Source: Thermoplasmata archaeon (GTDB lineage: Archaea > Thermoplasmatota > E2 > DHVEG-1). From it: a DNA stretch of 61,425 bases. Below the pieces are notes generated by a model. It made no database searches. It worked only from the letters and a program-made list of their open reading frames with translations, and was not told the origin of the DNA. The stretch spans positions 1 to 61,425 of the forward strand of contig DQIQ01000005.1 in assembly GCA_003942085.1 (NCBI GenBank), read 5' to 3'. A program made the position numbers and the translations under genes. Below are positions 17,322 through 47,534 of the stretch, one piece after another (position 1 is the first letter of the stretch; each line of letters begins with the position of its first letter).

Positions 17322-17337
17322 GTAATGTTAATGTAAT
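17322..17337 (-). promoter_or_regulatory. Two ATTAC boxes (GTAAT on +) 11 bp apart upstream of receiver gene
   Basis: GTAAT at 17322 and 17333. Confidence 0.55.
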
Positions 17338-17371
17338 GTTTTTTTTAATAGTTTCCGTTCATGTTCTATGT

Positions 17372-19909
17372 TCACACAGAGGTCTCTGCCAGCTCCTTAA
17401 TCTTGTTTACAGTAACATCATTTGATTTAATGGGGAGAACAAATCGAAAAATACTGCCTTTGCCCTCTGAGCTTTCAACCCATATTTTTCCACCATGCAA
17501 CTTAATGATACCCTTACAAAGAGCAAGACTAAGACCAACACCACCTAACAATCGGTCATCACCAGAATCTACCTGATAAAATGGCTCAAAAATCATTTCC
17601 TGTTTATCCTTTGATATCCCACGACCAAAATCCTGCACCTCAAACAAAATATCGTCATTTTCCTTCCTTGCTCTAATGTTAATCACCGAGCCGTCTGGTG
17701 AAAACTTTATCGCATTACCAACAAGATTCTGTATCACCTGCTTTATCTTGTCACAGTCAACGATCAAATCAGGCAATTCTTTTTCCACATCGACGTTGAT
17801 TACCATCTCCTTTTCATAATCATACGCTTGCAAGGTCTTGGTTGTTTCTTCGACAAGAGTTTTTGGATTCACGTTACAGGGAGTAATAATCAGGGTCCCT
17901 GTTTGTACATTGGAAATATCAAGAATATTCTGTATGGTATGATCAAGACGGTTGGTATTACGCAAGATTACCTCAAGACCTTTCATCTGCTCTGCATTTG
18001 TGCCACCGAAACTCTGTTTTAACAACATCTGCGTATATCCCTTTATCGCCGTAATCGGAGTACGCAGCTCATGAGAGGTGTTTTTCAGAAATGTCGTCTT
18101 GATGTCATTCAGTTTTTGCAATTGTATATTCTGAAATTCAAAATACTTGTTGAGGTCCTTAATTTCTTTAATGGCATTATTACGTTGAATGGCGATCGCG
18201 GCTTGGTTGATAAACGTCTCAATAACTTCAAGGTTCTGGATCTTGCAATCATTTTTTGCAGCCACAAATATATTCCCAAATATTTTTCCGTCTTTAACAA
18301 GGGCGATTGTGTATAACTCATTTAGGTTCATTAACTTGTCAATAATGAGAGATATCGCTTTTGGAAACTGAGGGAGAACAAATCTATTAAAATCATCGAC
18401 AGAGAGATGTATGAACTTTCCTTGGATTAACTGTTGCCGTATTCCCTCATCGTTTAACACAAAATTTGTACCGGCAGGATCTTTACCCAGGATTTGTAAA
18501 AATTTTTCCATGTATTTTCCATATCCTAGGACCTTGTTAATAATAAAATTGCTCGAATTTTCATCAAAATACGCAATCGTCACGAAAGCATTACTTACCA
18601 TTTGTTGTATTTTTTCTCCAATGTATTGGTAAATATCACCACCAATTGGAAAATTCGCTAGTTCAATTGCGGTTGTCGATAAAAATTGAGCGTTTTCTAT
18701 ACATTTGTTCTGGGTCTCATCTAAAATTTTACATGACGAACAGGATAAATCTACCGCTTTGAAGGAATCCTGAGGTATGATTACTTGTTTCTCAAGCTCA
18801 TTCATTTCTCCAGGTTTTTCACCAAGAAGAGGGTTTTCTGCTGTATTTGTACCTGTCCCCAGCCCAAACAGATCAACTCCCTTGAACCGTTTTTCAATGC
18901 CGGTTATGGATTCCACGGGCAAAACGAACTTAAACGTGCTCCCCTTGCCAGGGATCCCTTCGCTTTCAACCCAGATTCGTCCGCCATGAGCAACAACAAT
19001 ACCATAACAAATGGCAAGACCAAGACCGGCTCCTCCAAACTTTACATCCGTACTGGAATCTACCTGATAGAATGTCTGGAAAATTTTCTGATGATGTTCA
19101 GTAGATATTCCCCGACCGAAATCCTGTATCTCAAACAGGATATCCTGGTCTTGTTTTTTCACTCTAACATTAATAACAGACCCATTTGGTGAGAACTTGA
19201 CTGCGTTGGTTAAAATATTTATAATAACCTGTGTAATCCGATTGTTATCAATACCTAATTCAGGGATTGCTTTTTCTACTTCGGTATCAATTTTTATTCC
19301 TTTTAAACCAGCGGTAATTTGCATTGCGTCATAAACTTCTTTTATCATTTTTTCGATATTTGTTTTTTCAACAACAAACTTCATCGTTCCAGATTCCAGT
19401 CGCGAAACATCAAGAATATCTTGGATGAGACGAGCTAATCGATCTGAATTACGTTGAGCGATGTCCAATGCATTTTTTTGTTCATCATTGATCGGCCCAA
19501 GAGTTCCTCTCAAAATCATTTGGATGTATCCTTTTATTGCAACTATTGGTGTACGGAGCTCATGAGAGGTCATGTTCAGAAAAGCTGATTTTATTTCACT
19601 TAGTTTTTTCATTTTATCAGTAGTTTCGTATAAATCCTCCATGATGTTCAACGTCGCCAGATCATTTCCTTCCAAAATGTTAATTTTTTCCTGCAACAAC
19701 TCTTGATTTTTTTTATTTTCTTTAAAACTCTCCCCGAGGTCTTCAATCATCATGTTTATACCAATCGCAAGTGAATCAAAGTCATCGTTTTTGTTTGAAA
19801 TTACAATCTGAGTAGAATAATCTCCTCTCGCCACTCGTTCTATCGCTATGACCATTTTACTTATACGATCTTTCTCCGATATTTGATCCATTATCAGCTT
19901 CATTTTCAC
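17372..19909 (-). CDS. Tandem double histidine kinase (HAMP-HisKA-HATPase-GAF-HisKA-HATPase)
   Basis: Two TSHELRTP H-boxes and two N/G1/G2 sets; N-terminal HAMP-like segment without TM. Confidence 0.9.
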   Translation of the reverse strand: MKMKLIMDQISEKDRISKMVIAIERVARGDYSTQIVISNKNDDFDSLAIGINMMIEDLGESFKENKKNQELLQEKINILEGNDLATLNIMEDLYETTDKMKKLSEIKSAFLNMTSHELRTPIVAIKGYIQMILRGTLGPINDEQKNALDIAQRNSDRLARLIQDILDVSRLESGTMKFVVEKTNIEKMIKEVYDAMQITAGLKGIKIDTEVEKAIPELGIDNNRITQVIINILTNAVKFSPNGSVINVRVKKQDQDILFEIQDFGRGISTEHHQKIFQTFYQVDSSTDVKFGGAGLGLAICYGIVVAHGGRIWVESEGIPGKGSTFKFVLPVESITGIEKRFKGVDLFGLGTGTNTAENPLLGEKPGEMNELEKQVIIPQDSFKAVDLSCSSCKILDETQNKCIENAQFLSTTAIELANFPIGGDIYQYIGEKIQQMVSNAFVTIAYFDENSSNFIINKVLGYGKYMEKFLQILGKDPAGTNFVLNDEGIRQQLIQGKFIHLSVDDFNRFVLPQFPKAISLIIDKLMNLNELYTIALVKDGKIFGNIFVAAKNDCKIQNLEVIETFINQAAIAIQRNNAIKEIKDLNKYFEFQNIQLQKLNDIKTTFLKNTSHELRTPITAIKGYTQMLLKQSFGGTNAEQMKGLEVILRNTNRLDHTIQNILDISNVQTGTLIITPCNVNPKTLVEETTKTLQAYDYEKEMVINVDVEKELPDLIVDCDKIKQVIQNLVGNAIKFSPDGSVINIRARKENDDILFEVQDFGRGISKDKQEMIFEPFYQVDSGDDRLLGGVGLSLALCKGIIKLHGGKIWVESSEGKGSIFRFVLPIKSNDVTVNKIKELAETSV

Positions 19910-19936
19910 AAGTAACCTCGTTTTTATCTTCTCATC

Positions 19937-20329
19937 CTACTCCTTTAGCCATGCAAGACTACTTTCTTTTGAATTGAAAATTTTTATATTTTTATTCTTA
20001 GAAAAACCAATGACAAAAGACGCAATCACTCTGACAACTGGATTATAGCCATATATGGCGATTTTTCCGACCGATTCATCTTCGGTCATTTTTGCGAAAA
20101 TCTTTCTTGCTTCCGATGTTGGTTTCTTACATACACTGTTATTTATCAACAGATCCACTTTCCTTGTAGTGTTCCCTTCAATCCTGCGCATCAGTTTCGT
20201 AGATGCATCCTTCAACGCAAATGCATCTTGCACATCGAAGTCTCCAACAAGATCAATATACATAATGCCATCTTCACCGAGATAAAATCTACTTTCTCCC
20301 ACTCGAATTTCCCTTTCTTCTTTGTTCAA
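19937..20329 (-). CDS. STAS/SEC14 (SpoIIAA-like) small protein, copy 2
   Basis: KPTSEARK, KIAIYG.NPVVRVIASF, IFNSKE.ALAWL; TTG start. Confidence 0.75.
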   Translation of the reverse strand: MNKEEREIRVGESRFYLGEDGIMYIDLVGDFDVQDAFALKDASTKLMRRIEGNTTRKVDLLINNSVCKKPTSEARKIFAKMTEDESVGKIAIYGYNPVVRVIASFVIGFSKNKNIKIFNSKESSLAWLKE

Positions 20330-20388
20330 TTTTTCACATTTCCGTTTAGTTCATTTATTCTTTTTTTCAATTCTTCAAATTTCCTCAT
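20326..20388 (-). CDS. 20-aa mini-ORF MRKFEELKKRINELNGNVKN, a copy of the CHASE4 protein tail
   Basis: Hand translation; ATG 1 nt after the upstream TAA; TGA overlaps the downstream TTG start. Confidence 0.5.
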   Translation of the reverse strand: MRKFEELKKRINELNGNVKN

Positions 20389-20389
20389 T

Positions 20390-24900: not shown

Positions 24901-25664
24901 GTTTCAGGTTTACAACCAAGATGTCTTTCTACCGCAGGGTTGGCAGAAATATGGATGTAATCTATGGGTCTGCCTTTTTCATCTTTAATCAATTTACAGA
25001 TGACGATACCATTCTGGGAATTTTCAAACAATTTACCTAATTTTTCTTCACTTTCTTTTAAAGCTTTTTCTATTTTCTTTCGGTCAGTAATATCATGGCC
25101 AATCCCTTGAATAGCATACGGTTTTCCATTGTGATACAATATTTCTGCTGTTGTTTCTATATCGACGGTAGCGCCATTTTTGGTTTTTACTCTGTATTCC
25201 ATTGGTTCTTTTTGATGGCCATATTTTCTGATTTCTCTATTAGTTTTTATTGCTTTCAAAAGTTGGCCTTTGTCGAGCAATGTAGAAAAATTTATTGAAT
25301 TGAGTTCCTCTTTCCCATAACCAAATAGTTTGAATGCCGCAGGGTTAGCATCAATGAATCTTCCTTTGAAATCGTAGAGATATACCAATTCAAATGTACT
25401 GTTAAATAATGCTTGATACCGTTCTTTCATCTCCTGCAGAGCCGCTGCGATTTGCTTATGTTCATCGATGAACCCCGGCGCATCTTTATCCAATGCATCG
25501 GTCTTTTGTAAATCCTTAATAGAATTAACGCTATCGTCTAGTGCACCCTCTGGCATTGTGTCCTGCAGTTCAATTTCTTCACTACTGCTTTGTTCGCTAA
25601 AGAGAAGTTTTCCTTGCTTTTCCTCTTCTTTTAACTGTTTGACAATATCGGGTTCATCATTCAT
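21993..25664 (-). CDS. Cytoplasmic nine-PAS sensor, no catalytic output
   Basis: Nine PAS/PAC units ending in DITxRK-type motifs; tail DRELKMVELKNKI; likely start MNDEP after GGAG. Confidence 0.88.
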   Translation of the reverse strand: MNDEPDIVKQLKEEEKQGKLLFSEQSSSEEIELQDTMPEGALDDSVNSIKDLQKTDALDKDAPGFIDEHKQIAAALQEMKERYQALFNSTFELVYLYDFKGRFIDANPAAFKLFGYGKEELNSINFSTLLDKGQLLKAIKTNREIRKYGHQKEPMEYRVKTKNGATVDIETTAEILYHNGKPYAIQGIGHDITDRKKIEKALKESEEKLGKLFENSQNGIVICKLIKDEKGRPIDYIHISANPAVERHLGCKPETLINKTATDLIGKDAGKKYAEMNGSSVITGKPYSWVDYTPFYNKYLKMDSYSIKEDFFAITFVDITKEKNAEKEIRNLARLPAENPYPVLRISKDGKILYANDASVGLLAKWKSNVGDVAPERWRHFIENSLKSGKIKAEEEEEEDASGKVFSFVIAPIIEAGYANVYGHDITERKKAEQELQASQEKYKKLFDSSPNLIIETDDAGNILSANEPLARSLGAPLEKLIGKNILSILPKEIAEQRSSIARKALHEGKNQETEDARGERYFHNIYVPITYSDGKKTVQVIGRDITDQKKAEENIKTSEERFRHISENVGEWIWEIDVKGLFTYTSPAVEKILGYKSEEIVTKKYWYDFFTPDIKEQLMKVGIEKLTTKEPAKNVLYANVHKNGKIVLLETCTFPFLDKDGNLLGYRGVNTDVTERKKMEDLLNKSRDYFMNIIDAAGDPLFVKDGQCRFVTVNDALCKILKKSREELLGKTGAEFLLESEMEHFLEMDNKVLSSGEENLCEEKLTTGGGDVREIVTRKTRYVNPSGEKFVVGVIRDITERKQAEEAILQSEKKYRELADSLPQIVYETNEHGNITYTNKASFISLGYTQEDFKKGLNIFQMIAPCEREKLQSVIQKIQNGESTTGEVYLVQRKDGMTFPAIFHSVPIFKENKFVGFRGFAVDISERKKMEDSLKESEEKYRSLVENASDQIVMIDDEFKMISVNRAALELFGKTQNEIIGRTISELFPKEIAAKNIENVKKVFKTGQVFSFEEKQFVGENEFWASSILSPVKNDAGKTITVLGVIRDITERKKMEKELNESEEKYRNVVERAHDAIVILQDKNIIKYVNPRAFNILGYNPAEIIGTPMSDYVHPDEIPKVVEYYKRRLAGEDVPGVYDSVLVHKDGRKINVELSGDVITYHGKSADMIMVHDITEHKKAEEALKEKINELERFKKVTVDRELKMVELKNKIMQLQEESKRT

Positions 25665-25795
25665 TGGCCAGCTCCGCAGCATATTTATAAAAAAATCCTA
25701 TCGGTACGGCAACAGTGATGTAGCTATCAACAAATATATGCATTAGTGCATCATCCTTCACCTAGACCCTCCTAGCGAGTCCGTTTAGATGTAAC

Positions 25796-25844
25796 ATTAC
25801 ATAAACATTACATTGGAATTACAAATCTTTTGTTAGTATTTAAA
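25796..25844 (-). promoter_or_regulatory. Promoter: TATA box TTTAAATA plus three phased ATTAC boxes
   Basis: ATTAC at 25796, 25807, 25818; TATA at 25837-25844 (minus). Confidence 0.7.
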
Positions 25845-25980
25845 TATATATGATATAAACGAAAAACAGCCTCTCGGGGGAGATGGTTCGATAAGGGCGA
25901 AATGAAAAATTTAAGACCTCTACGTCATCAGAATTCTCATGTCAATTTCTACTCCAATGACATCAATAATTCGATTCGTT

Positions 25981-26032
25981 GAAGAGAGAAAAAAAAGGAA
26001 GGTACCATTGGGTGGGAGATAACTTTCCCCAA
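25981..26032 (-). terminator. Hairpin plus pyrimidine/U-tract after ORF 26040-26441
   Basis: Imperfect stem-loop TTGGGTGGGAG-ATAA-CTTTCCCCAA (26008-26032) followed on the minus strand by CCTTCCTTTTTTTTCTCTC. Confidence 0.45.
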
Positions 26033-26039
26033 GGGCACT

Positions 26040-26441
26040 CTAAATCCAAGATGGACTTGTTCGGATGATCGTTTTCATTGGGTCATTTTTCTTACAAAGA
26101 GATGTTATTTTAAAAAAAACGCCGTCGGTCGATATTCCTGCTGCACCAGGGGAGAGGATGCGATCTACCAATTGTGGAGTAGAGATATGAGATTCAATTA
26201 CAAAAAAGAGGTTCGTTGTCCAGAGTATGGACTCTGAACAAAATACACTCCATCTATTTTTGATGCGAAAGCAGTCAATATCTTGGACACCTTCTAAATA
26301 GGTTACATCATCCAGTCGAGTCGTATTGTCAGCAGTTTTCTCCCAAATTCCCGTAGGCTGAGGTCTAACAAAAACAGTCATTGTGTAAGCGTTGGATTCG
26401 TTAATCGTGTCAATTTTTTGATCAGGCATCCGTCGTTTCAC
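26040..26441 (-). CDS. Hypothetical protein (unrecognised ORF)
   Basis: 133 aa ORF flanked by an ATTAC/TATA promoter and a terminator-like element; no recognisable domain. Confidence 0.4.
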   Translation of the reverse strand: MKRRMPDQKIDTINESNAYTMTVFVRPQPTGIWEKTADNTTRLDDVTYLEGVQDIDCFRIKNRWSVFCSESILWTTNLFFVIESHISTPQLVDRILSPGAAGISTDGVFFKITSLCKKNDPMKTIIRTSPSWI

Positions 26442-26468
26442 GTTCCATCCTTTTTACGTTCTTTTCAC

Positions 26469-26517
26469 ATTACCAAAAAATTACAATTAAATTACGAATC
26501 TCTTTTTAACATTTAAA
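26469..26517 (-). promoter_or_regulatory. Promoter: TATA box TTTAAATG plus three phased ATTAC boxes
   Basis: ATTAC at 26469, 26480, 26491; TATA at 26510-26517. Confidence 0.7.
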
Positions 26518-26637
26518 TCTTATGGTTTTTTTTATAAAAAAGGGGAAAATTTTTACCGCTTTATTTTCTGCATACTTTTTCAAGTTATCGATCTATTTGA
26601 GGACACCAATTACAAAAAGACCCGAAACTTTAGTGGT

Positions 26638-28188: not shown

Positions 28189-28305
28189 GGTCCAATCATT
28201 CCAAGGAGATTAAAAAATTAATAATCACCTTTTCTTTCCATATCATATTCCACTTTGAGTTGAGGCTCGATCAAAGTCAATGCCATGATTGCTTTTTTCC
28301 ATTCA

Positions 28306-29443: not shown

Positions 29444-29464
29444 TATATCACGTTGAGAAATTTT

Positions 29465-34202: not shown

Positions 34203-34328
34203 TATTTCTTTGCGACGATGGCAGGTATGCTTTATTTTTCAAATCCATTGAGCATAACAGATTATCAAAATAGGAATTAAATTATGTGATGACTTTTACT
34301 TAAGATCTATATTATTTCTTTAGTTATT

Positions 34329-34385
34329 ATGCTCATTGAGCATTACTTTTTAATTTACATTACAATCGTAATGTTTATAAATTAC
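34329..34385 (+). promoter_or_regulatory. Pilus-operon upstream region: 15-bp palindrome and ATTAC/GTAAT boxes
   Basis: ATGCTCA-T-TGAGCAT at 34329-34343; CATTAC-AATC-GTAATG at 34358-34373; ATTAC at 34381. Confidence 0.55.
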
Positions 34386-34514
34386 AGAACGTATATCTGA
34401 AAATCACAGAAACAGAGGACGGATGATGCACCAAATGGACTATACGTTTGTAGTTAGTTTTGGAAAAGACATCCATTGTTCAGAGCCTGGTGAAGTTGTT
34501 TTAAGGTTGGTTTA

Positions 34515-38254: not shown

Positions 38255-38264
38255 AGATAGCGTG

Positions 38265-38711
38265 ATGGATTTGAAAAGAGAAGGGAAAAAAAAAGATGAG
38301 GCGGTTTCAGATGTCCTTGGAGCGGTCCTCATGCTCAGTATGGCGGTAGCACTTTTCGCTATTGTGTATATTGTGGTGATGTCCTTTCCGTTTCATTCAT
38401 CTGCACCTCGAGTGGATATTGTTGGAACGATACAGGGAAATACTATTGTTCTAGAACATCTCGGTGGTGAATCAATATCTGCTACTTCGAAGGTTTCTGT
38501 TGTGATAAATAGTACACAACATAGTCTAAATGTCAGTCAATATCTCGTTGATTCCAATGGGAATAAACTGTGGGATATGGGTGAACGACTGGTTTATCCA
38601 TCTGGAAATATAACAAATCTTCGGGTTGTAGCTACCGTAATCGACATGGGGAGCAATTCCATAGTGATGACGGGAGTTCTACAGGAGGGGAAAGCAATTG
38701 CAACACCTTGA
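38265..38711 (+). CDS. Archaeal type IV pilin (class III signal peptide)
   Basis: KKKDEA/VSDVLGAVLMLSMAV; HLGGESI; WDMGE. Confidence 0.85.
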   Translation: MDLKREGKKKDEAVSDVLGAVLMLSMAVALFAIVYIVVMSFPFHSSAPRVDIVGTIQGNTIVLEHLGGESISATSKVSVVINSTQHSLNVSQYLVDSNGNKLWDMGERLVYPSGNITNLRVVATVIDMGSNSIVMTGVLQEGKAIATP

Positions 38712-39024
38712 TGGTACTGCTCTTGATACTACTGAGATTACTGGTTCTTCAGCAATATTATGGTTGATTTATAAATTCATAAACTACGCAGGATCTAACC
38801 GGTTCACCTATAAACTTTCTGGAGACAGTTGGACAAATATCGCTTGGTGCCCCAAGTCAGGTTCAAGCTCTTACAATCAGAGCATTAGCGGTTTATTTCA
38901 GGGCATAGTTTATAATTTTAAGGCTCAGCTTCCTCAGGATTCTACTTCGATTGAGGGTGAAGTCAAGGTAAAAAAAAATGGAGAGAAAGAAAAGAAATCA
39001 CTTGCAATCAATAGCCTCAAATGA
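38698..39024 (+). pseudogene. Out-of-frame FN3-like segment, probably the frameshifted C-terminal domain of the preceding pilin
   Basis: +1 frame overlapping the pilin stop reads TTEITGSSAILW...FTYK...W...SISGLFQGIVYNFKAQL; only a TTG start. Confidence 0.45.
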
Positions 39025-42000
39025 AGCGGTTTCAGAGGTTCTTGGAGCCATTCTTATGCTCGCTATAGCGGTAGCACTTTTTGCTCTTGTGTATATTATT
39101 GTGATGGCCTATCCGTTTAATTCTTCTCCACCTCGAGTGGATATTGTTGGGACGATACAGGGAAATACTATCGTACTGGAGCATCGCGGTGGTGAATCAA
39201 TATCTGCTTCTTCGAAGGTTTCTGTAGTGGTAAATGGTTCAGAGTATAGTCTAAAGGTAAGCGAATATCTTGTTGATACCAATAGGAATAACCGGTGGGA
39301 TGTGGGTGAACAACTGATTTATTATCCATCAGTGGACATCAAGGGTCTGCGTGTTGAAGCCACCGTTGTCGATGTAAATACCAATTCTATTGTAATGATG
39401 GAGATTATTCAGCAGGGTGGTGATACTCAGATTCCGCTCGAGACCACAGTAAATCCTATCAGCCCCTATGATCAACCGTCACCGTCTCTTTCTCTTACAG
39501 CATCTGGTGATTTTCGTCTCAATAATGTAACACTGTTTTATCGTTGGAGCAATGATAACAGTAGCTGGAATGGAGGATTACATGTAATATATGACAGTGT
39601 TGACAGCAACTCCAGTAATATGGATGGCAGCACTGATAAAGGAGTAGAAACCAACTTCGCCAACGCACAAGGAATAACCAAAGATGGCAACTCCATGACA
39701 ATCCAAGAAACAGACACAGCAGGCCAAGACCATAAAACAGCAATCACAGGAAACACCTGCAACGTCGACAGCAGCCCAGACAAAGGAACAGAAACCAACT
39801 TTGTAAATGCACAAGGGACTTCCCGTGACACGAATAACATGGTAATTACTGAGGTAACCTCTGGTTTACCTGCAGTTAATGAGCATTTGTATGTTGATTC
39901 ATTCACCGCCACGACGACAGGTTGGACGAACACGGGGACAACACCTTATCTTAGTGCTATTGATGGCACGAACTATATCCAAACAAGTACGAACGGTCGG
40001 GTTGGTCGATGGTTCACATTTACAAACACTGCATCAACTGGAAACATTCTAACGGTTGCCCTCAGCATCTACGTCACTGCCGGTGATGGGGACGATGATG
40101 TCACCTGGAGTATTGATACGAATGGGGACAACACTGCTGAGTACACAGGGACAATCAATAATCCCGTTGGGTCCAATTGGTATAGCACAGGGACAATCGC
40201 TGGTCTCACCACAAGTGCTCTGGTGAACAGCTCACGGGCTTCATTCACATATGTCAGGAGTCTACCAGCAAACATCATTAGGATTGATTGTGCCCAGTTG
40301 AATGTCACCCGTACATCCACAATAAACTACCAGATAGACTTCGAATACAACTGGACAAAAGCCAACAACAGCGACACAACCGAATATCTGTGTTTCTATG
40401 TAACATCACACACAGGCTCTGAAACCCTGAACATCAACTACAGAAACGGAACAACCTGGACAAACCTAGGAACAATCACAACAACAGGATGGAAAAACAT
40501 AACAGCCACAGGCCTAACCAGCAAAACCTACACCATACAAATAATCGGAACAACAGAAACAAGCGACACCACCCAAGACACCTGGAACATCGACTGCATC
40601 TTCCTACACTCATACAACACATCCAACTACCAAATCGACATCGAATACCAATGGATAGCAATCAATTATACACAAGTAAATAAACAAGTGTGTTTCTATA
40701 TTACATCTCATACCGGAACTGAGAACCTGCTGGTAAATTATTGGACTGGATCTGCATGGTCATTACTGGGAACAATAACCAGTACAGGTTGGTCGAATTT
40801 TACTGCGACAGGCCTTTCATCATCGCCCTATACCATCCAATTGAAAGGTGTAACAGAATCAAGTGACATAGTGAAGGATACTTGGAATATCGATGTGATA
40901 ATGCTTCGCACATGGAATGGTGGGATATGGTATGATGCTAATTGGGCGTATAGAAAGAAGATTAATATTACTGGTCAAATTGGAGCTGGACCTAACTATC
41001 AAGTACTTTTGAATATCGGAGAAACATCTGGTGCTTCAGGGGTTAATTTTAATTTGGGTGGACATTCATCAAACTTTCCTACCGGGAAAAATACAGGGGG
41101 AGACTTGGGGTTTACTAATAAAAGTGATACAGTCCCCCTTGATTTCTGGGTAGAAGATATATCCGGGATAGCCCCAAACAGAGTTGCAAAGGTATGGGTG
41201 GAAGTAAAAGATAGCTTGGATAGCAGTTCCACCATTTATTGCTATTACGGCAATCCATCTGCTACAAACGCTAGTAATGGAACTAACACCTTTAATTTCT
41301 TTGATAACTTTGATGATAATTCTATCGATGTGAACAAATGGACTACATACCAAGGTACTTGGAGTGAGACGGGTAGGGTGATGAAACAAACATCCACAGC
41401 GACCGGTGACCCTAAGAAATGTATTGCAAAATCAGCCTCCCAATCTGATTATTACGCAATTAGAGCAAAAGTGAGACCAGATTCTGGAACAAGCAGTGAT
41501 GCGAGAGCGGGCTTAAGTATTAAAACTGACCTGAGTAATGGTCAAGGTCTCAACTATGTTTTTCATGATTTCAATGCAAAGACAACAGACCAATTCTTAG
41601 ATGACTTACGAACATGGGGAACATCGTATTCTCGAGCTGTATGGTCATTTGGAACATGGTATTGGTTTGAAATCTATCATGATGGAACAAATGTTAACGG
41701 AAGAATCTGGGATATTAATAGTACACCAGGTGGTTTTCATTCGTGGGCAAGAGGTGGAAGGTCAGGTTATCCTGCTCTTAATGGAGGAAGCATGGGAGAA
41801 ACTGCTTCTTTTGATGATGTCTTTGTTAGAAAATGCATTGAAAATGAGCCATCCTACAGTTCAGCTGGAAATGAAGAAACACTCAGTATAAATAATGGAG
41901 AAGGGCATAATTGGAGTATTTATACAGGTGATATTAATCCTGACTCAAATAGCCCCTGGCTTTGGTCTTTTGATTTTCCAAATAATATCGGGTATTATGA

Positions 42001-42076
42001 ATTTTACAGTAGAGGGATGTATAATGGTGTGGCAGAGACCGCACCAATTAATGCTGATGCAAGCTGTAAAAATTAG
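38978..42076 (+). CDS. Large pilin-like adhesin (pilin N-domain, internal repeats, DUF2341-like and lectin-like domains)
   Basis: NEA/VSEVLGAILML; duplicated DKG.ETNF.NAQG and NYQID.EY.W...DTWNID modules; W.YRKKI...LDFWVE...YYGNP. Confidence 0.85.
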   Translation: MERKKRNHLQSIASNEAVSEVLGAILMLAIAVALFALVYIIVMAYPFNSSPPRVDIVGTIQGNTIVLEHRGGESISASSKVSVVVNGSEYSLKVSEYLVDTNRNNRWDVGEQLIYYPSVDIKGLRVEATVVDVNTNSIVMMEIIQQGGDTQIPLETTVNPISPYDQPSPSLSLTASGDFRLNNVTLFYRWSNDNSSWNGGLHVIYDSVDSNSSNMDGSTDKGVETNFANAQGITKDGNSMTIQETDTAGQDHKTAITGNTCNVDSSPDKGTETNFVNAQGTSRDTNNMVITEVTSGLPAVNEHLYVDSFTATTTGWTNTGTTPYLSAIDGTNYIQTSTNGRVGRWFTFTNTASTGNILTVALSIYVTAGDGDDDVTWSIDTNGDNTAEYTGTINNPVGSNWYSTGTIAGLTTSALVNSSRASFTYVRSLPANIIRIDCAQLNVTRTSTINYQIDFEYNWTKANNSDTTEYLCFYVTSHTGSETLNINYRNGTTWTNLGTITTTGWKNITATGLTSKTYTIQIIGTTETSDTTQDTWNIDCIFLHSYNTSNYQIDIEYQWIAINYTQVNKQVCFYITSHTGTENLLVNYWTGSAWSLLGTITSTGWSNFTATGLSSSPYTIQLKGVTESSDIVKDTWNIDVIMLRTWNGGIWYDANWAYRKKINITGQIGAGPNYQVLLNIGETSGASGVNFNLGGHSSNFPTGKNTGGDLGFTNKSDTVPLDFWVEDISGIAPNRVAKVWVEVKDSLDSSSTIYCYYGNPSATNASNGTNTFNFFDNFDDNSIDVNKWTTYQGTWSETGRVMKQTSTATGDPKKCIAKSASQSDYYAIRAKVRPDSGTSSDARAGLSIKTDLSNGQGLNYVFHDFNAKTTDQFLDDLRTWGTSYSRAVWSFGTWYWFEIYHDGTNVNGRIWDINSTPGGFHSWARGGRSGYPALNGGSMGETASFDDVFVRKCIENEPSYSSAGNEETLSINNGEGHNWSIYTGDINPDSNSPWLWSFDFPNNIGYYEFYSRGMYNGVAETAPINADASCKN

Positions 42077-42090
42077 TAAGAGGATTTGAA

Positions 42091-42933
42091 ATGAACGTGA
42101 ATCAGATAAAAAACTCAAATGACGCAGTCGCAGGTGTCGTTGTCGCAATTTTACTGCTCGGATTATTTGTCACCGTCCTTGGCGTTATACAAACCATGTA
42201 TGTGCCAAAATGGATGAAGCAAATAGAATCAGAGCACATGGATGAAGTTGCAGGGCAGTTTGCCCAGTTGAAATATGCGATAGATACGCAATCTACTATT
42301 CAAAAAAAAGGCACAATAGCTACATCAATTACTCTTGGAAGCAGTGAACTGCCTTTCCTTCCTTCAAGCAAGGCATTCGGTTCTCTATTTATTTTATCAG
42401 ATGAATGCAATGTGACAGTTACTAGCAGTATTGATCCAACATTTCATTGTTCCCTGGGAACCATAAAATATTCATCAAAAAACTCATATTTTCTTGATAA
42501 ATCATATATTTTTGAGGCAGGAGCATTGATAGCGAGTCAATCTGAAGGAAATATTATGCTCATACGACCTTTTTCCGTGACGAACGAAAACGGTCTTATT
42601 AGCGCATCTTTCAGCATTACAAATATCTCTGGTGAGGGTGGAAAAACCTCTGCAGGTGGATATGGGGTTTATCCGATACAGACAGAATATTTAAGCAATA
42701 AAACCACAATTTTACACGGTGTTACAAGTATCACAATTACCTCGGACTACCCTAACGCGTGGCACAAAGCTTTTAACAGTACTTTAGTAGAATCAGCAGG
42801 GTTAATTTATAGTCATCATTTTTTAATATCTAACAACAGTAACGAGGTAACTATAACATTCATCGGGGTAACTGTAAATCTCACCATAGCCGTTACTAAA
42901 ATCGACGCCCAGATAGCGATCGGATGGATTTAA
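42091..42933 (+). CDS. Minor pilin-like protein
   Basis: NDA/VAGVVVAILLLG...QTMYVPKW...E.EHM; class III-like signal. Confidence 0.8.
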   Translation: MNVNQIKNSNDAVAGVVVAILLLGLFVTVLGVIQTMYVPKWMKQIESEHMDEVAGQFAQLKYAIDTQSTIQKKGTIATSITLGSSELPFLPSSKAFGSLFILSDECNVTVTSSIDPTFHCSLGTIKYSSKNSYFLDKSYIFEAGALIASQSEGNIMLIRPFSVTNENGLISASFSITNISGEGGKTSAGGYGVYPIQTEYLSNKTTILHGVTSITITSDYPNAWHKAFNSTLVESAGLIYSHHFLISNNSNEVTITFIGVTVNLTIAVTKIDAQIAIGWI

Positions 42934-43017: not shown

Positions 43018-43938
43018 TTATTTGGTCCCCAATCCACCAAATACCTCCTGTTTTGGATATACGATCATGCCTTTATCAGAAATTTTCATCGCAACGATTC
43101 TTTCTTGATGTTTTGTCCCCCGCATCTTCAACACTTCAATAGCCCGCTGTCTCATCCCCTCCCGCTTGATATGATAAATCACGATCACCCCGTCAGCAAG
43201 GAATTCTTCAACACCTGTTTGAGAAAAGGTTTCAGGCATCTGTCCGGTCTCGGTGATAAAAAAATTTGTGCTGCCCATATTTTCAAAAAACCTGAATAAC
43301 CGCTCAGCATAGAACCGATACGAACCGTCTTTTCCCATGAACGCTGAAGCTATCGCGGTGAGTGAATCAACAATGACAAAATCAGGTTTATAGTCTTCCT
43401 CCAGGGTGATCGGTTCCAGCTGTAACAGCTGGCTGTCCTCCTCCTTTGAAAACATCGCATCAACGCTACCTCGTTCAGATAAATAATGAATGTCACTAGG
43501 GAGATACCTTTTGATTTTTAGGTTGCCTGTCTCAAGAAGTTTTTCAGGATCCCAACTAAAATCCTTCATATGTTCCATCAATCTTTTTTCAGATTCTTCA
43601 AAGCTCATGTAGAAACATTTTTTACCATGTAAGATATGATATTGAAGCATCTGCAAACAAAAAATGGTTTTCCCGGAACCTGCACCCCCAGCTACCAGGA
43701 CATTAGAGCCTCGGGGTATGCCGTTTTCAAAGAGCTCATCAAATCCCGGTATCCCTGTTATTACATATTTTTTCGTATCGTTTACTTCTTTTAAGTCTTC
43801 AACAGTACGTTGTGTTTTTGATTCTAACGTCTGGCCATCTTGTTTTTTACTTTCACCGTCCCCTAATTTTTTTTCTATTATTGATTTGATTTTTGACATA
43901 TCGAAAATAGTATCCTGTTCGCTCTCCTTTTTTGTCAT
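43018..43938 (-). CDS. Single-domain KaiC/RAD55-like ATPase
   Basis: TGIPGFD, GGAGSGKT, SFEE, IVDSL, VEEFLADG, KMRG. Confidence 0.92.
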   Translation of the reverse strand: MTKKESEQDTIFDMSKIKSIIEKKLGDGESKKQDGQTLESKTQRTVEDLKEVNDTKKYVITGIPGFDELFENGIPRGSNVLVAGGAGSGKTIFCLQMLQYHILHGKKCFYMSFEESEKRLMEHMKDFSWDPEKLLETGNLKIKRYLPSDIHYLSERGSVDAMFSKEEDSQLLQLEPITLEEDYKPDFVIVDSLTAIASAFMGKDGSYRFYAERLFRFFENMGSTNFFITETGQMPETFSQTGVEEFLADGVIVIYHIKREGMRQRAIEVLKMRGTKHQERIVAMKISDKGMIVYPKQEVFGGLGTK

Positions 43939-44150: not shown

Positions 44151-44199
44151 ATTACAATTAAATTACTTATAAATTACTAATATCTTTTTGACATTTAAA
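44151..44199 (-). promoter_or_regulatory. Promoter: TATA box TTTAAATG plus three phased ATTAC boxes
   Basis: ATTAC at 44151, 44162, 44173; TATA at 44192-44199. Confidence 0.7.
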
Positions 44200-44266: not shown

Positions 44267-44644
44267 TTATTTCTCCAGCATCCTGTCGATCCGTCTCATC
44301 AAATCATCGATATCATAGGGCTTCAGGATATAATCCAATATATCCAACTCTTTGAGCATTTGTTTCCCATAGCCGCCAAACGCAGCGACCGTTAAAAAAG
44401 CAAGTTTAAGATTCTTCAACTGTGCATCGTTCCGTATGCTTTCACACACTTCTCTGCCGCTCATCTCAGGCATGAACATGTCGACCAGGACCAAATCTGG
44501 TTTTTTTTCCAAATTTTTAAGAATTTTAAGGGCTTCTTTCCCATTGGCTGCTCCCACGACATTATAATCATGGGACCGAAGTAGAATAGTGAGCATCTCT
44601 CGCAAATCGGGTTCATCATCAATAACCATCACGGTCTTTACCAT
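44267..44644 (-). CDS. Stand-alone receiver (REC) protein
   Basis: VIDDE, DMFMPEMSG, FLT, ILKPY. Confidence 0.92.
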   Translation of the reverse strand: MVKTVMVIDDEPDLREMLTILLRSHDYNVVGAANGKEALKILKNLEKKPDLVLVDMFMPEMSGREVCESIRNDAQLKNLKLAFLTVAAFGGYGKQMLKELDILDYILKPYDIDDLMRRIDRMLEK

Positions 44645-45429
44645 TTCACATCACCTGTCACCTTATCCACAAACATGGTGATATCATTCATCGTCTGTAC
44701 CCCAAGGTCTTCCATTTTACCAATAAAAAACCCCTGCGCCCTATTGGCCTTAATCAATAAGGTCATATCCTGCACAAACTTCGGCAGCTCAAACCTCTTA
44801 ATTGCCTTTACTGCAGAGACATTATCGATGACCACAATGTTGATGTTTTTTTCTTTAAGCACCTTATCCAAGATGGCTTTTATATCATCAGGAGTGTTTT
44901 TTACCACAATAACGTTAACAGAATCTGCTTTTTCCCCGGTCGCATCGATAAAATGTATTGCTGATGAATCAATGCCGTACAAACTGAAGAGATCCACTAA
45001 TTTTTTATACGGTTTTTCCATCGTAACAATGCACACACCTCGGACATTCTTGACGATGGACACAAGCGTATCCTCGTATTTCTCTTTAGAAGTAAGCACG
45101 AACGCCTGACCATAGTCTGATAAATCCATGATTAGTGTTCTTAATTTCCACATGCCAGCAACCAGTAGCACAATGAAGAGGATCTCCAAAAAGTTCGTAA
45201 TCATAAAGTCCGTGATAATAGTCTGGTTTATGATACCGAATATCCCTAAAACCTGAACCGTCTGCAGCAGAAAAAAAACAACCATGCCCCCTAAGACAAA
45301 GAGCAGCCCCAATCGCATCTTATCTTTTGTTCTTTTGACAATACCAAAGACGATCAACACCCCGAAAAGACCGACAATAAAAGTAAGGATGTAGATTATT
45401 TCACTCAGACCTATCTGATTCATAATCAT
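44638..45429 (-). CDS. Three-TM membrane protein with inactive KaiC-like (DUF835-like) cytoplasmic domain
   Basis: Three N-terminal TMs; EKPY, FIDAT, VVIDNVS; no Walker A. Confidence 0.7.
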   Translation of the reverse strand: MIMNQIGLSEIIYILTFIVGLFGVLIVFGIVKRTKDKMRLGLLFVLGGMVVFFLLQTVQVLGIFGIINQTIITDFMITNFLEILFIVLLVAGMWKLRTLIMDLSDYGQAFVLTSKEKYEDTLVSIVKNVRGVCIVTMEKPYKKLVDLFSLYGIDSSAIHFIDATGEKADSVNVIVVKNTPDDIKAILDKVLKEKNINIVVIDNVSAVKAIKRFELPKFVQDMTLLIKANRAQGFFIGKMEDLGVQTMNDITMFVDKVTGDVKW

Positions 45430-45629
45430 TTTTTGCCTGTTTGCCTGACAAATCTCTGAAGGTCTTTTACTGAGACTTTCAATACCTTATTGGAGGGCTG
45501 CCCGTATTCAATTAATCGTCGCACCCCGTCTCGTACCGCTTCGGACCTATTAGGATAGGTGCCTTCTTTTATCAATTCGTCTAACTGTTCCAGCATATTT
45601 TTTGTGAGTCTAATTTGAATGGTTTCCAT
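45426..45629 (-). CDS. Ribbon-helix-helix (CopG/Arc/MetJ-like) transcription regulator
   Basis: TIQIRL beta strand, LDELIKEG.YPNRSEAVRDGVR; GGTGA RBS before ATG 45629. Confidence 0.9.
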   Translation of the reverse strand: METIQIRLTKNMLEQLDELIKEGTYPNRSEAVRDGVRRLIEYGQPSNKVLKVSVKDLQRFVRQTGKK

Positions 45630-45659
45630 TTCTATCACCGATTGTTTTCATCGCTTCGC

Positions 45660-45699
45660 ATTACAAAGCAATTACAGGTAAACGATTGTATGATATAAA
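45660..45699 (-). promoter_or_regulatory. RHH gene promoter: two phased ATTAC boxes plus TATA box TTTATATC
   Basis: ATTAC at 45660 and 45671; TATA at 45692-45699. Confidence 0.65.
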
Positions 45700-45741: not shown

Positions 45742-46359
45742 CTATTTTTTCTTCTGTCCATCGATATATTTATTCAGTTCTTTTCCGGAAATCCTCAGCT
45801 TCGATATCCTTCGATGTTCATAAAACCATACTACCCCAGTAAAAACAAAAGCCGCGACCACCACGTACTGGATAAGGTTCTGCTCACCCGTTGGTACGAT
45901 GACTACATTAAAAGACCGGTGCACCTCGCTTGATTTACTCCCGTCAAGATTACTCACATTCGCCGTAAGAAAATAGACGCCTTCCTCAATACTAACTGGC
46001 AGATTAAAAGTCGCAACAAAGGAGCTCTTAGTCTCAACCGCAACCGTCTCACTGGAAGAAAGAATCATTTTTCCGTCAGCATCTAAAATTTTATAAAAAA
46101 CGACAACATCAACCCTACCCAGTGCTTCCCGGTTTCTAATTTCCGTGATCGTATGAAAGGAATTGCCTGGCCTAAACGCATCACCTTCCACAATCGAAAG
46201 AGAAATCGAAAGAGATGGGTCGGATGAGACAGCAGCGCCAACTGCATTAGTACAGAGGAACATACCGACAAGTAGCACTACCAAAAAAAATTGGAAATGT
46301 ACACGTCTCCTTTTGACCGAATGTTTGCTCTCGTAAGCTGGTATAGGTAACATCCTCAT
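45742..46359 (-). CDS. Exported Ig-like domain protein with C-terminal TM
   Basis: Signal peptide, beta-sandwich resembling the C-terminal domain of 55583-58471, TM anchor. Confidence 0.7.
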   Translation of the reverse strand: MRMLPIPAYESKHSVKRRRVHFQFFLVVLLVGMFLCTNAVGAAVSSDPSLSISLSIVEGDAFRPGNSFHTITEIRNREALGRVDVVVFYKILDADGKMILSSSETVAVETKSSFVATFNLPVSIEEGVYFLTANVSNLDGSKSSEVHRSFNVVIVPTGEQNLIQYVVVAAFVFTGVVWFYEHRRISKLRISGKELNKYIDGQKKK

Positions 46360-46764
46360 GGAAATGAATAGATCATCCTCTAAAAACGTTTATTGTTATT
46401 CATTGGCGATGATACATTTCGTATTTGTTGGTAACCAGGATAAAAAATCTGCTCCTGGTGGAAGAACGATTTTTTCAGAGCCGAATATAAATTGGGGGAG
46501 GGCGTGTGGGGGTCGTCTGTGGGATGGGTATATCGGTGAAACTATACTCATACAATATTTCACAAGCGTTTTCCCCCACAACGAGGATATTTGTGCATAG
46601 GGAATTTTTCAGATGGATATTTTCAGAAGTCGCGACGCTTTCTACAGCGGGCCTGTCGACCCTTCTCTCCAGATCAGGGGAATATTTCTCCTCACCATCG
46701 ATTGTTTCTGGCTCTCCAACAGTAGTCAGCGCCACTCCTTCACATCCCATTTCATTTGCTATAC

Positions 46765-46806
46765 GTAATTGCTTTGTAATGTTTATGTAATGTCTATGTA
46801 TTTAAA
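46765..46806 (-). promoter_or_regulatory. Promoter: TATA box TTTAAATA plus three phased boxes in inverted orientation (GTAAT on +)
   Basis: GTAAT at 46765, 46776, 46787; TATA at 46799-46806. Confidence 0.65.
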
Positions 46807-46950
46807 AAGTTTTTGTCAGCCCAGATCTAAAAAAAGGAACCACCAAAACCCTGAGAAGATCCTAAAAAAAAACAAATGATACGAGAAATCACAGAACGCA
46901 TTCAAGAGACCTTATCGACTCTTTTAGGAACCTGCCAGATCAACAAGACG

Positions 46951-47352
46951 TCAATATATTCCACTAGATGCAGCATCCAGCTTTTGCGCAGAACCTACGT
47001 GTTTATTAATTCGCACCAGCAAATCATCCAGATCAAACGGCTTGGTGATATAATCAACGACGTTACCGGTCTGAAAAATAATCTGCTTTTCAGCTTCAGA
47101 ATAACGGACGACGGTCACCAAAATAATCTTTGGCTTGCACGTTTTCTCCTTAAGCTTTTCCAGTATCTCCGTCGTTTTTAGCCCAGGCATCATCACATCA
47201 AGGGAGACCAGATCAGGCTGAAAGCTATCGATTTTATCGAGAAGATCCTGCCCGTCACACGCAGTCTCAGTGACAAAACCCTCCTTCCGAAGATACAGAT
47301 TAAGCATCTCCCGTAAATCGACCTCATCGTCCACAATCATTATTTTCGTCAT
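46951..47352 (-). CDS. Stand-alone receiver (REC) protein
   Basis: MTKIMIVDDE, DVMMPG, ITKPF; close paralog of 16928-17302. Confidence 0.92.
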   Translation of the reverse strand: MTKIMIVDDEVDLREMLNLYLRKEGFVTETACDGQDLLDKIDSFQPDLVSLDVMMPGLKTTEILEKLKEKTCKPKIILVTVVRYSEAEKQIIFQTGNVVDYITKPFDLDDLLVRINKHVGSAQKLDAASSGIY

Positions 47353-47515
47353 TTTTTTACCACCCACCACTTTTTTTACCAAACAACCTCTCGCAACACC
47401 CCATCACCATATGAAACGAAAAAATATCGCTGATGAATAGGAAAAAATAACTGACTATTCATACTCATTCACATTCCCATCCGTTTTTCCGTTAAATGTT
47501 AAGATAACCACAAAT

Positions 47516-47534
47516 GTAATGCTTATAAATTACA
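47516..47534. promoter_or_regulatory. GTAAT-N8-ATTAC element upstream of receiver gene
   Basis: GTAATGCTTATAAATTACA matches GTAATGTTTATAAATTACA at 34368-34386 at 18 of 19 positions. Confidence 0.55.

Follow-up and report, generated by a model that had tools for sequence, protein, structure and literature searches.

Phased GTAAT boxes at promoters of a signalling and pilus gene island in an uncultured Thermoplasmatota archaeon: candidate operators of an autoregulated RHH repressor

A GTAAT (ATTAC) box repeated in strict 11-bp phase is found at promoters of a gene island in an uncultured Thermoplasmatota archaeon with a genome of 2.02 Mb. The island encodes KaiC-like ATPases, PAS histidine kinases, receiver-only regulators, and a type IV pilus operon; it lies in a stretch of 61,425 nucleotides, referred to here as the window. 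The boxes are a conserved cis-element with a fixed position by the TATA box, and they co-occur with the gene of a 67-aa RHH protein. We consider it probable (roughly 70%) that they are the operators of an autoregulated repressor regulon, bound by this RHH protein, which would occlude the start site or the TATA box. As in the class represented by F55, an RHH repressor of an archaeal virus, repeated boxes are found at several targets and in the regulator's own promoter. The proposed system is a regulatory switch of a solid but conventional type.

Phased boxes and their promoters

The consensus unit is wtwY-GTAAT-K-tww, present in 2 to 4 copies at a spacing of strictly 11 bp, one helical turn. 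The GTAAT core is invariant and the spacers are variable. ATTAC-N6-ATTAC-N6-ATTAC triplets occur five times in the window, on the plus strand at 25796, 26469, 34154, and 44151 and on the minus strand at 46765, while 100 dinucleotide shuffles of the window give no triplet at 11-bp phase. Phased pairs, including those at 17322 (-), 45660 (+), and 46765/46776 (-), number 12 against 0.14 expected (shuffle maximum 2). The first-pass annotation had named equal frequency of triplets in shuffled intergenic DNA as an outcome that would speak against an operator. When the 2855 bp of intergenic DNA of the island (GC 33%) are shuffled 2000 times with dinucleotides kept, the means are 8.95 boxes, 0.0145 pairs, and 0 triplets; 29, 12, and 5 are observed, and none of the 2000 shuffles reaches the observed count of boxes, pairs, or triplets. 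Box density is 10.2 per kb in intergenic and 2.1 per kb in coding DNA. The phased pattern is real and far beyond chance.

Across the 2.02-Mb genome there are seven exact triplet matches, all with period 11 and none with periods 8, 9, 10, 12, 13, or 14. Five are those of the window, and the other two overlap in a single four-box site on contig C32. Twenty-two pairs are found genome-wide: 12 in the window, three on C32, and one each on C54 and C65, where the flanks are motif-like. The remaining five are chance-like, about four being expected by chance from the 5-mer frequency. Nine sites are found in the window (Table 1) and three on other contigs. The operator had been described as island-wide, which is not fully accurate given the sites on C32, C54, and C65.

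A recount of the window returns every ATTAC box coordinate given earlier. It also returns the 17-nt identity of 45659-45675 with the exact reverse complement of 46765-46781, and the minus-strand TATA 8-mer that begins exactly 19 bp after the start of the third box (4/4 triplets; 8-mers in Table 1). The sites listed at that time are right, but the list lacks the composite at the pilB promoter (34342-34385), and at 47516-47533 its end coordinate touches an inverted pair that it does not describe. Likewise, a fixed layout describes the four triplets, which are alike, but not the pairs, the sets inverted relative to the gene, and the inverted pairs flanking the TATA box.

Table 1. Operator sites and genes of the island (window coordinates)
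Position	Strand	Feature	Description
16928-17302	-	Receiver gene	
17322-17337	-	Operator site	Two boxes, GTAAT on plus (inverted relative to the minus-strand gene); 69-bp gap between double histidine kinase and receiver gene 16928-17302; after an A-rich TATA-like run
25682 to 17372	-	Gene run	PAS x7 / CHASE4-HAMP / DUF7793 x2 / double-HK
25796-25844	-	Operator site	Three phased boxes 25796-25822; TATA box 25837-25844, TTTAAATA on minus; predicted promoter of the run 25682 to 17372
26040-26441	-	133-aa ORF	Without family match
26469-26517	-	Operator site	Three phased boxes; TATA box 26510-26517, TTTAAATG; predicted promoter of the 133-aa ORF
29465-34003	-	KaiC-PAS-GAF-HK gene	
34154-34202	-	Operator site	Three phased boxes; TATA box 34195-34202, TTTATATG; predicted promoter of 41-aa ORF, KaiC-PAS-GAF-HK gene, two small KaiC-like genes, and probably PKD gene
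34342-34385	+	Operator site	Composite: ATTAC, then ATTAC-N4-GTAAT-N8-ATTAC around TTTATAAA element; pilB promoter, upstream of the pilus operon
34515-42933		pilB-pilC-pilin operon	
43018-43938	-	KaiC gene	
44151-44199	-	Operator site	Three phased boxes; TATA box 44192-44199, TTTAAATG; predicted promoter of 54-aa ORF and KaiC gene
44267-44644	-	Response regulator	Receiver-only
44638-45429	-	KaiC-like protein	Membrane-anchored; without Walker A motif; start overlaps RHH stop
45426-45629	-	RHH gene	True start ATG 45629; 67 aa; CopG/NikR-type; first in RHH / membrane KaiC-like / receiver run
45660-45699	-	Operator site	Two boxes 45660-45675; TATA box 45692-45699, TTTATATC; RHH gene's own promoter
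45742-46359	-	Membrane protein gene	
46475-46750	-	91-aa ORF	
46765-46806	-	Operator site	Three exact boxes and a fourth degenerate one (GTATT), inverted relative to minus-strand genes; directly downstream of TATA 46799-46806, TTTAAATA on minus; predicted promoter of 91-aa ORF and membrane protein gene
46951-47382	-	Receiver gene	
47516-47533	-	Operator site	Inverted pair GTAAT-N8-ATTAC, spacer is the TATA element (TTTATAAG on minus); upstream of receiver gene 46951-47382; same architecture seen again in related loci

The TATA-to-box distance differs between promoters and is not uniform. Measured from the TATA box it is fixed at 22 bp for the four triplets and at 24-25 bp for the RHH promoter. 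Behind the TATA 8-mer, the boxes begin after 14 nt at the four triplets, after 16 nt in front of the RHH gene, and after 7 nt at 46765; in relatives, PKD and kinase promoters leave 1-2 nt. With respect to the gene, boxes are seen in both orientations (inverted at 17322, 46765, and C32), which an RHH protein may tolerate.

The RHH protein and conservation in relatives

In the island ORFs scanned against Pfam, the RHH domain (PF01402, RHH_1) is the one DNA-binding domain found; its score is 32.4 bits (cut-off 20.5; E 7.9e-8) over residues 7-44 of a 70-aa reading. The response regulators of the island are receiver-only. An AF2 monomer model, of low confidence (mean pLDDT 57), has helices at residues 10-22 and 28-42 and an extended N-terminus. 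T3, Q5, and R7, on the strand predicted to read the DNA, do not vary among 12 orthologues, in line with the constancy of the GTAAT core, and the strand residues are identical across all orthologues compared. The same strand aligns with that of NikR, the closest solved structure. Outside the RHH domain the tail is also conserved, with L50, S53, D56, L57, Q58, and F60 invariant. The order RHH / KaiC-like / receiver is kept in all ten loci with enough flank.

Several named families were considered and rejected for this protein. The best NCBIfam NikR model gives 34 bits (cut-off 83), and the protein is 67 aa long without the C-terminal nickel-binding domain. For CdrS (NF058555) the score is 40.8 bits against 100, and the downstream gene is the membrane KaiC-like one, not ftsZ; aCcr1 (NF053762) reaches 17.6 bits of 60. 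A ParD/RHH type II antitoxin (TIGR02606, 29.5 bits against 46.2) does not fit the neighbours, a KaiC-like membrane protein and a receiver. A type II ParR/parC partition system does not fit sites dispersed at promoters, nor is an actin-like or ParA gene adjacent.

Forty-one related genomes were compared, the window's genome and 40 relatives, of which 21 belong to the same genus. Triplets are found in the window's genome and in four of the 21 (G001, G003, G014, G021), and in none of the 17 same-genus genomes without the island. RHH orthologues are found in exactly the same four (60-63% identity, E 1e-23 to 1e-25), the next best match in any of the 40 relatives having E 2.7e-7. Note that island-type PilB and other mapped island genes occur in these four as well. 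Such a distribution would suit any factor encoded in the island, an unrecognised small protein included, and is not peculiar to the RHH protein.

The first-pass interpretation is partly supported, and each of its points open to an in silico test came out in its favour. Orthologous promoters of the relatives keep the boxes, and the cis-element is placed by the TATA box. In the KaiC-HK promoters of G000, G014, and G003, three boxes are kept and the 6-nt spacers are changed. Phased boxes immediately behind a TATA box are also present in front of the PKD gene in G014, G001, and G021 and at several kinase promoters. The pilB composite is exact in three of four genomes (G014 and G001 among them) and has one mismatch in the fourth, G021. 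As negative controls, around distant RHH paralogues (25 loci) there are no triplets and just two isolated pairs, and 25 paralogous pilB loci (106.7 kb) contain no pair.

Boxes had also been noted in the RHH gene's own promoter. A GTAAT-N6-GTAAT pair lies upstream of the gene in 4/4 same-genus relatives carrying the orthologue, in 10/11 loci of a species-genome collection (the exception, L068, has no boxes), and in 21/23 metagenome loci with a visible promoter, the other two (L119, L120) having one-mismatch boxes. Overall, 30 of the 33 promoters measured carry the exact pair. Counted from the first T of TTTATA, the first box begins at 24 bp (17 promoters) or 25 bp (13) in every one of these 30, while anything from 15 to 61 bp separates the site from the ATG. 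It is thus the promoter and not the coding sequence that sets its position. Of all the sites, the one in the RHH gene's own promoter is the best conserved, which is the classic mark of an autoregulator.

Proposed mechanism and alternatives

On sequence evidence, the most likely binder is the RHH protein encoded at 45426-45629. We infer which protein binds, in what stoichiometry, where transcription starts, and the direction of the effect as follows. RHH dimers would bind cooperatively, one per box, lined up along a single face of the helix. An overlap of boxes and start site is predicted from the usual spacing between TATA box and start in archaea, by which the pair at the RHH promoter should bracket the expected start. 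The sites either flank the TATA box or begin immediately behind it and reach to about +20; RHH occupancy would therefore repress, by blocking the recruitment of RNA polymerase or of TBP/TFB. Proposed targets are about nine promoters, of KaiC-like ATPases, PAS histidine kinases, receiver-only regulators, a surface PKD protein, and the type IV pilus operon, and at least three promoters elsewhere in the genome. The presence of two boxes only at the RHH promoter implies negative autoregulation through what would be a weaker site than the three-box targets.

It is unlikely that the operator is real but belongs to another binder, with the RHH gene merely a target. Such a binder could be a host transcription factor or an unrecognised small island protein; the shared phyletic pattern of the island genes would suit the latter, and the scan finds no family match for the island ORFs of 133, 108, 91, 54, and 41 aa. 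These same ORFs, however, show no DNA-binding domain even at E up to 1, and a genus-wide host factor predicts sites in the 17 same-genus genomes that lack both island and triplets. The rank of the RHH promoter as best conserved site (30/33) also argues against another binder. Archaeal activators typically act upstream of BRE/TATA, while in the promoters inspected the boxes follow the TATA box or surround it. This makes activation through the boxes, by the RHH protein or another factor, quite improbable, even though RHH proteins can work in both directions, as is reported for AmrZ and AvtR (PMC3325190, PMC5569661). The same low probability applies to boxes as a structural promoter element (intrinsic bending, or initiator-proximal), which would call for neither an unchanging GTAAT core amid variable spacers nor a restriction to island-bearing genomes.

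Some leaders would be long, the annotated start codons lying 114-213 nt from the boxes, so part of a box set could be transcribed, and GUAAU in the 5' leader might be recognised by an RNA-binding protein. We regard this as very improbable: boxes in both orientations (17322, 46765, C32) and inverted pairs flanking the TATA box fit DNA recognition and not RNA, the 11-bp period is a DNA helical turn, and box position is fixed to the TATA box and variable to the ATG. An RHH protein with 11-bp iterons is reminiscent of type II partition systems, and the GC content of the island (34-43%) is below that of its flanks (44-52%). A role of the boxes in partition or replication, as iterons of an integrated mobile element with a ParR-like RHH protein on an 11-bp centromere, is nevertheless extremely improbable. 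The RHH gene has the membrane KaiC-like and receiver genes beside it and no ParM- or ParA-like gene; the sets of 2-4 boxes are dispersed, each by a TATA box, and form no single array; and neither an integrase nor a replication gene is seen among the island ORFs scanned.

The preferred reading, an RHH autorepressor, has known parallels. RHH dimers of omega of pSM19035, Arc/Mnt, MetJ, and ParR/parC bind short direct or inverted repeats cooperatively and autoregulate, the repeats of omega and MetJ being 7-8 bp. These systems differ from the present one in repeat length and in their bacterial promoter context. Cooperative binding to repeats and autoregulation by RHH proteins are also stated in general terms in the F55 paper (PMC5569661). 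There, F55 is a small RHH dimer whose tandem-repeat sites have an 11-nt consensus. At several promoters, its own among them, these sites overlap the start site and BRE, and its own promoter has fewer of them than its targets (PMC5569661). Three boxes at targets and two at the RHH promoter would be the same logic. F55, however, is viral and works as a lysogeny switch in a crenarchaeal host with a different repeat word, whereas the system here is cellular and serves a signalling and pilus island of Thermoplasmatota.

The archaeal context of the island is seen in a domain scan, which finds archaeal type IV pilins together with KaiC and MEDS domains. KaiC-like genes adjoining archaeal pilus loci were predicted to be regulatory in the cited portion of Makarova et al. 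2016, a pattern that the island fits, but that portion names no RHH protein or operator for KaiC/pilus loci (PMC4858521). It is possible, though doubtful, that the RHH protein is the missing transcriptional output of an archaeal KaiC/two-component network. Its conserved tail would then be a docking motif, receiver phosphorylation or the state of the inactive, membrane-anchored KaiC-like partner would hold or release it, and signals from the many PAS kinases of the island would lift repression from the pilus operon and from the signalling genes as well. If true, this would give archaeal response regulators without DNA-binding domains a concrete route to transcription control.

Among solved structures, NikR (1q5v, E 1.3e-5, residues 1-43) is the closest by sequence and shares the helix-2 motif G-x-Y-x-NRSEA-x-RD, differing in that the 67-residue protein here has no C-terminal nickel-binding domain. 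The matches in the PDB extend over residues 1-43 only. The small archaeal RHH regulators aCcr1 and CdrS differ as well, since the targets here are not cell-division genes and the boxes here come in 2-4 copies at strict 11-bp phase. As a lead only, the published 9-bp aCcr1-box contains GTAAT if the first-named base is taken at each position.

Phased GTAAT boxes in the window and the genome

The repeated word is GTAAT (ATTAC on the other strand). Two or three such boxes at 11-bp phase, separated by N6 spacers, form a pair or a triplet. The phasing described in the first-pass annotation is borne out: the window has five ATTAC-N6-ATTAC-N6-ATTAC triplets (see table), and none arose in 100 dinucleotide-preserving shuffles of the window. 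Box pairs number 12 against 0.14 expected from the shuffles. Comparison with shuffled intergenic DNA had also been proposed, and for this the intergenic DNA of the island (the low-GC signalling and type IV pilus region) was shuffled alone (2855 bp, GC 33%) 2000 times. None of these shuffles equalled the observed 29 boxes (shuffle mean 8.95), 12 pairs (0.0145), or 5 triplets (0). The density of boxes in the island is 10.2 per kb in intergenic DNA vs. 2.1 per kb in coding DNA.

Across the entire genome (2.02 Mb in 135 contigs, 83% complete), exact triplets occur seven times at period 11 and at none of the periods 8-10 and 12-14. These seven matches are the five in the window and two overlapping ones in a four-box site on another contig (C32). 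The unit derived from 83 distinct box instances is W-T-W-Y-GTAAT-K-T-W-W, where the GTAAT core is fixed by construction because the instances were drawn from exact pairs. Note that the reversed word TAATG is not an independent control, since many boxes are GTAATG. Therefore, the shuffles and the period scan are relied on.

In the reading direction of the minus-strand genes that they would regulate, four of the triplets have a TATA 8-mer followed after 14 nt by GTAAT-N6-GTAAT-N6-GTAAT. The fixed TATA distance noted earlier was confirmed by script: the minus-strand 8-mers found 19 bp after the start of the third box are TTTAAATA, TTTAAATG, TTTATATG, and TTTAAATG. The script likewise showed 45659-45675 and 46765-46781 to be exact reverse complements of each other. 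In archaeal promoters the TATA box is centred near -26. With the TATA box of the triplets taken as centred there, their boxes are predicted to span about -8 to +19.

All sites listed in the first-pass annotation are present, but the list was incomplete: it lacked the composite site of the pilB promoter and a description of the inverted pair upstream of a receiver gene. Candidate target promoters in the genome number about a dozen. The sites on contigs C32, C54, and C65, outside the window, are all upstream of genes whose products have weak Pfam matches or none. By count, inverted arrangements are not enriched genome-wide; GTAAT-N8-ATTAC has four copies in the genome, two of them at island promoters. 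The reality of these putative inverted sites rests on conservation in relatives.

Another word, ATGGGATG, lies downstream of several sites. Whether it might be a second cis-motif or a box in degenerate form was considered, and both were rejected: counted by eye, it is off the 11-bp phase. It has 136 copies in the genome and is best read as the start regions of small ORFs.

Box sites and selected genes (window forward-strand coordinates unless a contig is named)
Feature	Position	Description
Triplet	25796	Minus-strand gene
Triplet	26469	Minus-strand gene
Triplet	34154	Minus-strand gene
Triplet	44151	Minus-strand gene
Triplet, inverted	46765	Three exact boxes and a fourth degenerate, inverted relative to own genes; begins 7 nt after TATA box
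RHH promoter pair		Two boxes, 16 nt after TATA 8-mer
Inverted pair	17322	Two boxes, both inverted relative to the minus-strand gene, between kinase gene and receiver gene
pilB promoter composite	34342-34385	ATTAC-N4-GTAAT-N8-ATTAC around TTTATAAA element
Inverted pair	47516-47533	Spacer itself is a TATA element; upstream of receiver gene
Four-box site	C32:13648-13685	287-aa ORF downstream
Degenerate box and two boxes	C54:17221-17247	118-aa ORF, then ODP-type metallo-beta-lactamase
Phased site	C65:1836-1873	321-aa ORF with weak CopC match
RHH gene	45426-45629 (-)	67-aa CopG-type protein
KaiC-like gene	15587-16910
KaiC-like gene	28306-29443
KaiC-like gene	29465-34003
KaiC-like gene	43018-43938
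KaiC-like gene	44638-45429	Among the short or degenerate ones; membrane-anchored; no Walker A motif (by eye)
Small ORF	34008-34133 (-)	41 aa, hydrophobic middle; between operator and KaiC-kinase gene
Histidine kinase gene	17372-19909 (-)	845 aa; two tandem HisKA and HATPase modules (two Pfam stretches each)
CheB-CheR-PAS gene	52544-55309 (-)	921-aa fusion of CheB methylesterase, CheR methyltransferase, and PAS; directly upstream of 1519-aa PAS kinase

Conservation of the boxes in related genomes

Among 40 relatives, triplets are found in four genomes of the same genus (G001, G003, G014, and G021), besides a simple repeat in G036. The reversed-word control has no match in the genus. The KaiC-kinase promoters of the window's genome, G014, and G003 align throughout, with GTAAT invariant and the spacers varying. 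In the PKD-gene promoters of G014, G001, and G021, three boxes start 2 nt after the TATA box, and several kinase promoters in the relatives have two boxes 1 nt after it. G014 and G001 carry identical copies of the pilB composite and G021 a copy with one mismatch, and GTAAT-N8-ATTAC with a TATA-like spacer is also found in the loci L059, L060, L062, and L064. Conservation of the boxes extends to more than 30 loci. The boxes are almost certainly a real regulatory cis-element; the finding is real, conserved, and larger than first described.

The triplet matches of G036, a genome of the same class, were rejected as operators and left out as unrelated. They belong to a simple ATTACCTTTGC tandem repeat that also matches the control pattern; at G036:C96:3100-3137 (L006/L010) this 11-mer is present in at least four tandem copies.

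The RHH protein as candidate regulator

The first-pass annotation proposed that the ribbon-helix-helix (RHH) protein of the island represses it through these boxes. The protein is of CopG type (PF01402, 32.4 bits vs. a cut-off of 20.5), and among the ORFs scanned it is the only recognisable DNA-binding protein of the island. Its start was correctly placed at the ATG at 45629 and is fixed by orthologues. Upstream of the gene, GTAAT-N6-GTAAT is found in all four same-genus relatives, in 10 of 11 loci from the species-genome collection (a set that includes these four relatives; L068 has no boxes), and in 21 of 23 metagenome loci with a visible promoter. In the remaining two, L119 and L120, the boxes have one mismatch each. 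The exact pair is present in 30 of the 33 RHH promoters measured, a count that leaves out L101 and L103, which have the pair but were missed by the search pattern. The first base of the pair lies 24 bp (17 promoters) or 25 bp (13) after the first T of TTTATA, whereas the distance from the pair to the start codon varies from 15 to 61 bp. Therefore, the site is held in register with the promoter. When 12 promoters are aligned, nearly all columns with at least 90% identity belong either to the TATA element or to the box pair, whose two boxes would lie on either side of the predicted +1.

L119 and L120 are closely related, and their RHH starts with MDT instead of MET (E2D) and has a 5-residue N-terminal extension. 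Their boxes are GTGAT and GTAAG. These changes in protein and boxes are too few to interpret. In G014 (L047:19030-19080) and G001 (L049:4300-4345), an 8-bp inverted repeat, GCTTATAC ... GTATAAGC, flanks the box pair; G003 and G021 retain this repeat in part only.

RHH orthologues (60-63% identity, E 1e-23 to 1e-25) occur in exactly the four relatives that bear triplets, and the best match in any other genome has E 2.7e-7. Around 25 distant RHH paralogues there are no triplets and only two isolated pairs, and 25 paralogous pilB loci (106.7 kb) have no pairs. PilB of the island type was not found in genomes lacking RHH; it is confined to the same four relatives, as are the other mapped island genes, and therefore this co-occurrence cannot separate the regulator from its targets. 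Membrane protein, RHH, membrane KaiC-like protein, and receiver follow one another in this order in all 10 loci whose flanks are long enough. Of 28 metagenome loci located by means of the KaiC-like gene, 24 have RHH immediately upstream of it, and the other four contigs end there. These loci were scanned for diverged RHH proteins with a different box, but all 24 RHH proteins keep T3, Q5, and R7 together with the GTAAT word.

T3, Q5, and R7 of the predicted strand are invariant in 12 orthologues and match in alignment the strand with which NikR, the closest relative of solved structure, reads DNA. A monomer model of low confidence (pLDDT 57) has helices at 10-22 and 28-42 and a possible third at 54-64. 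Beyond the RHH fold, in residues 44-67, L50, S53, D56, L57, Q58, and F60 are also invariant in the 12 orthologues, and dimers might contact each other or a partner through this stretch. Complex prediction with two RHH copies and residues 101-263 of the KaiC-like neighbour, using alignments, scored 0.00 in both runs, in which the controls were not folded; this speaks neither for nor against contact.

In the proposed mechanism, one RHH dimer would bind each GTAAT box on successive turns of one DNA face, and the dimers, binding cooperatively, would cover the start site. Where the site is the pilB composite or the inverted pair at 47516, the TATA box itself would be covered. Repression would then fall on the pilus operon, the island signalling genes, and a few genes outside. 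The two-box promoter of RHH itself would give negative autoregulation at lower occupancy than the three- and four-box targets. Both the 11-bp period and the presence of boxes in either orientation favour DNA, not RNA, as the molecule recognised. From the sequence evidence, we consider it probable (about 0.7) that RHH binds the boxes and represses; repression by RHH is the best available reading, not a proven one.

An autoregulated RHH protein on tandem repeats is in itself a conventional mechanism. The nearest functional analogue is F55 of the archaeal virus SSV1, an RHH protein described as binding tandem repeats with an 11-nt consensus; at several promoters these overlap the BRE and the start site, and its own promoter has fewer of them (PMC5569661). 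The window's RHH is nearest to the CdrS, NikR, and aCcr1 models, below every curated cut-off, and lacks the metal-binding domain of NikR; therefore, it is classed only as a CopG-type RHH. The published 9-bp box of aCcr1 appears to contain GTAAT if the first-named base is taken at each position, which is a lead only.

Content and origin of the island

The low-GC stretch covers about 15.5-55 kb (34-43% vs. 44-52% in most flanking bins and 43% genome-wide) and consists almost throughout of signalling genes. They include a KaiC-KaiC-PAS-GAF histidine kinase of 1512 aa, a KaiC of 306 aa, PAS-rich kinases of 1229, 1519, and 845 aa, one CHASE4-HAMP protein, five receiver-only response regulators, and a PKD/NosD surface protein. 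There is also a complete archaeal type IV pilus operon (PilB-like ATPase, PilC-like membrane protein, and pilins with the archaeal N-terminal pilin domain). At least seven proteins have KaiC-like domains, and at least five of these are short or have weak or degenerate matches (Pfam E 0.007 to 5e-6). Only four of the 21 same-genus genomes have the island (about 16000-52000 in the window), and its arrangement differs among them. Low GC and this patchy, rearranged distribution suggest horizontal movement. No integrase was seen among the window ORFs scanned. The mcrA family was not found in the 83%-complete genome, and therefore the organism is not called a methanogen.

To our knowledge, very few operator-regulator pairs have been defined in uncultured archaea. 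From sequence alone, the island yields a complete candidate regulon whose box is precise, strictly in helical phase, and set at a fixed place with respect to the TATA box. Through it, one small candidate repressor is linked to KaiC-like ATPases, histidine kinases, receiver-only regulators, and a pilus operon; the interest of the context lies in this gathering of KaiC-like proteins, two-component proteins, and pili under a single candidate regulator. The 67-aa protein and 30-bp probes would make a tractable in vitro system for how KaiC and two-component signalling reaches archaeal transcription. No description of this operator or of the RHH/KaiC-like/receiver operon was found in the literature searched. 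According to one account, a regulatory role had already been predicted for KaiC-family ATPases adjoining archaeal pilus loci, and regulation of type IV pili in archaea outside Sulfolobales is largely unknown (PMC4858521).

Fourteen sequencing runs match 25600-34600, and all of them are DNA metagenome contigs, with no RNA run among them. The peptide core of the 41-aa ORF within this stretch is kept in G014 (L046 near 11990) and G003 (L052 near 4960). Its translation is argued from G003, where an A-run differs by one base and a second ATG beyond it preserves the frame.
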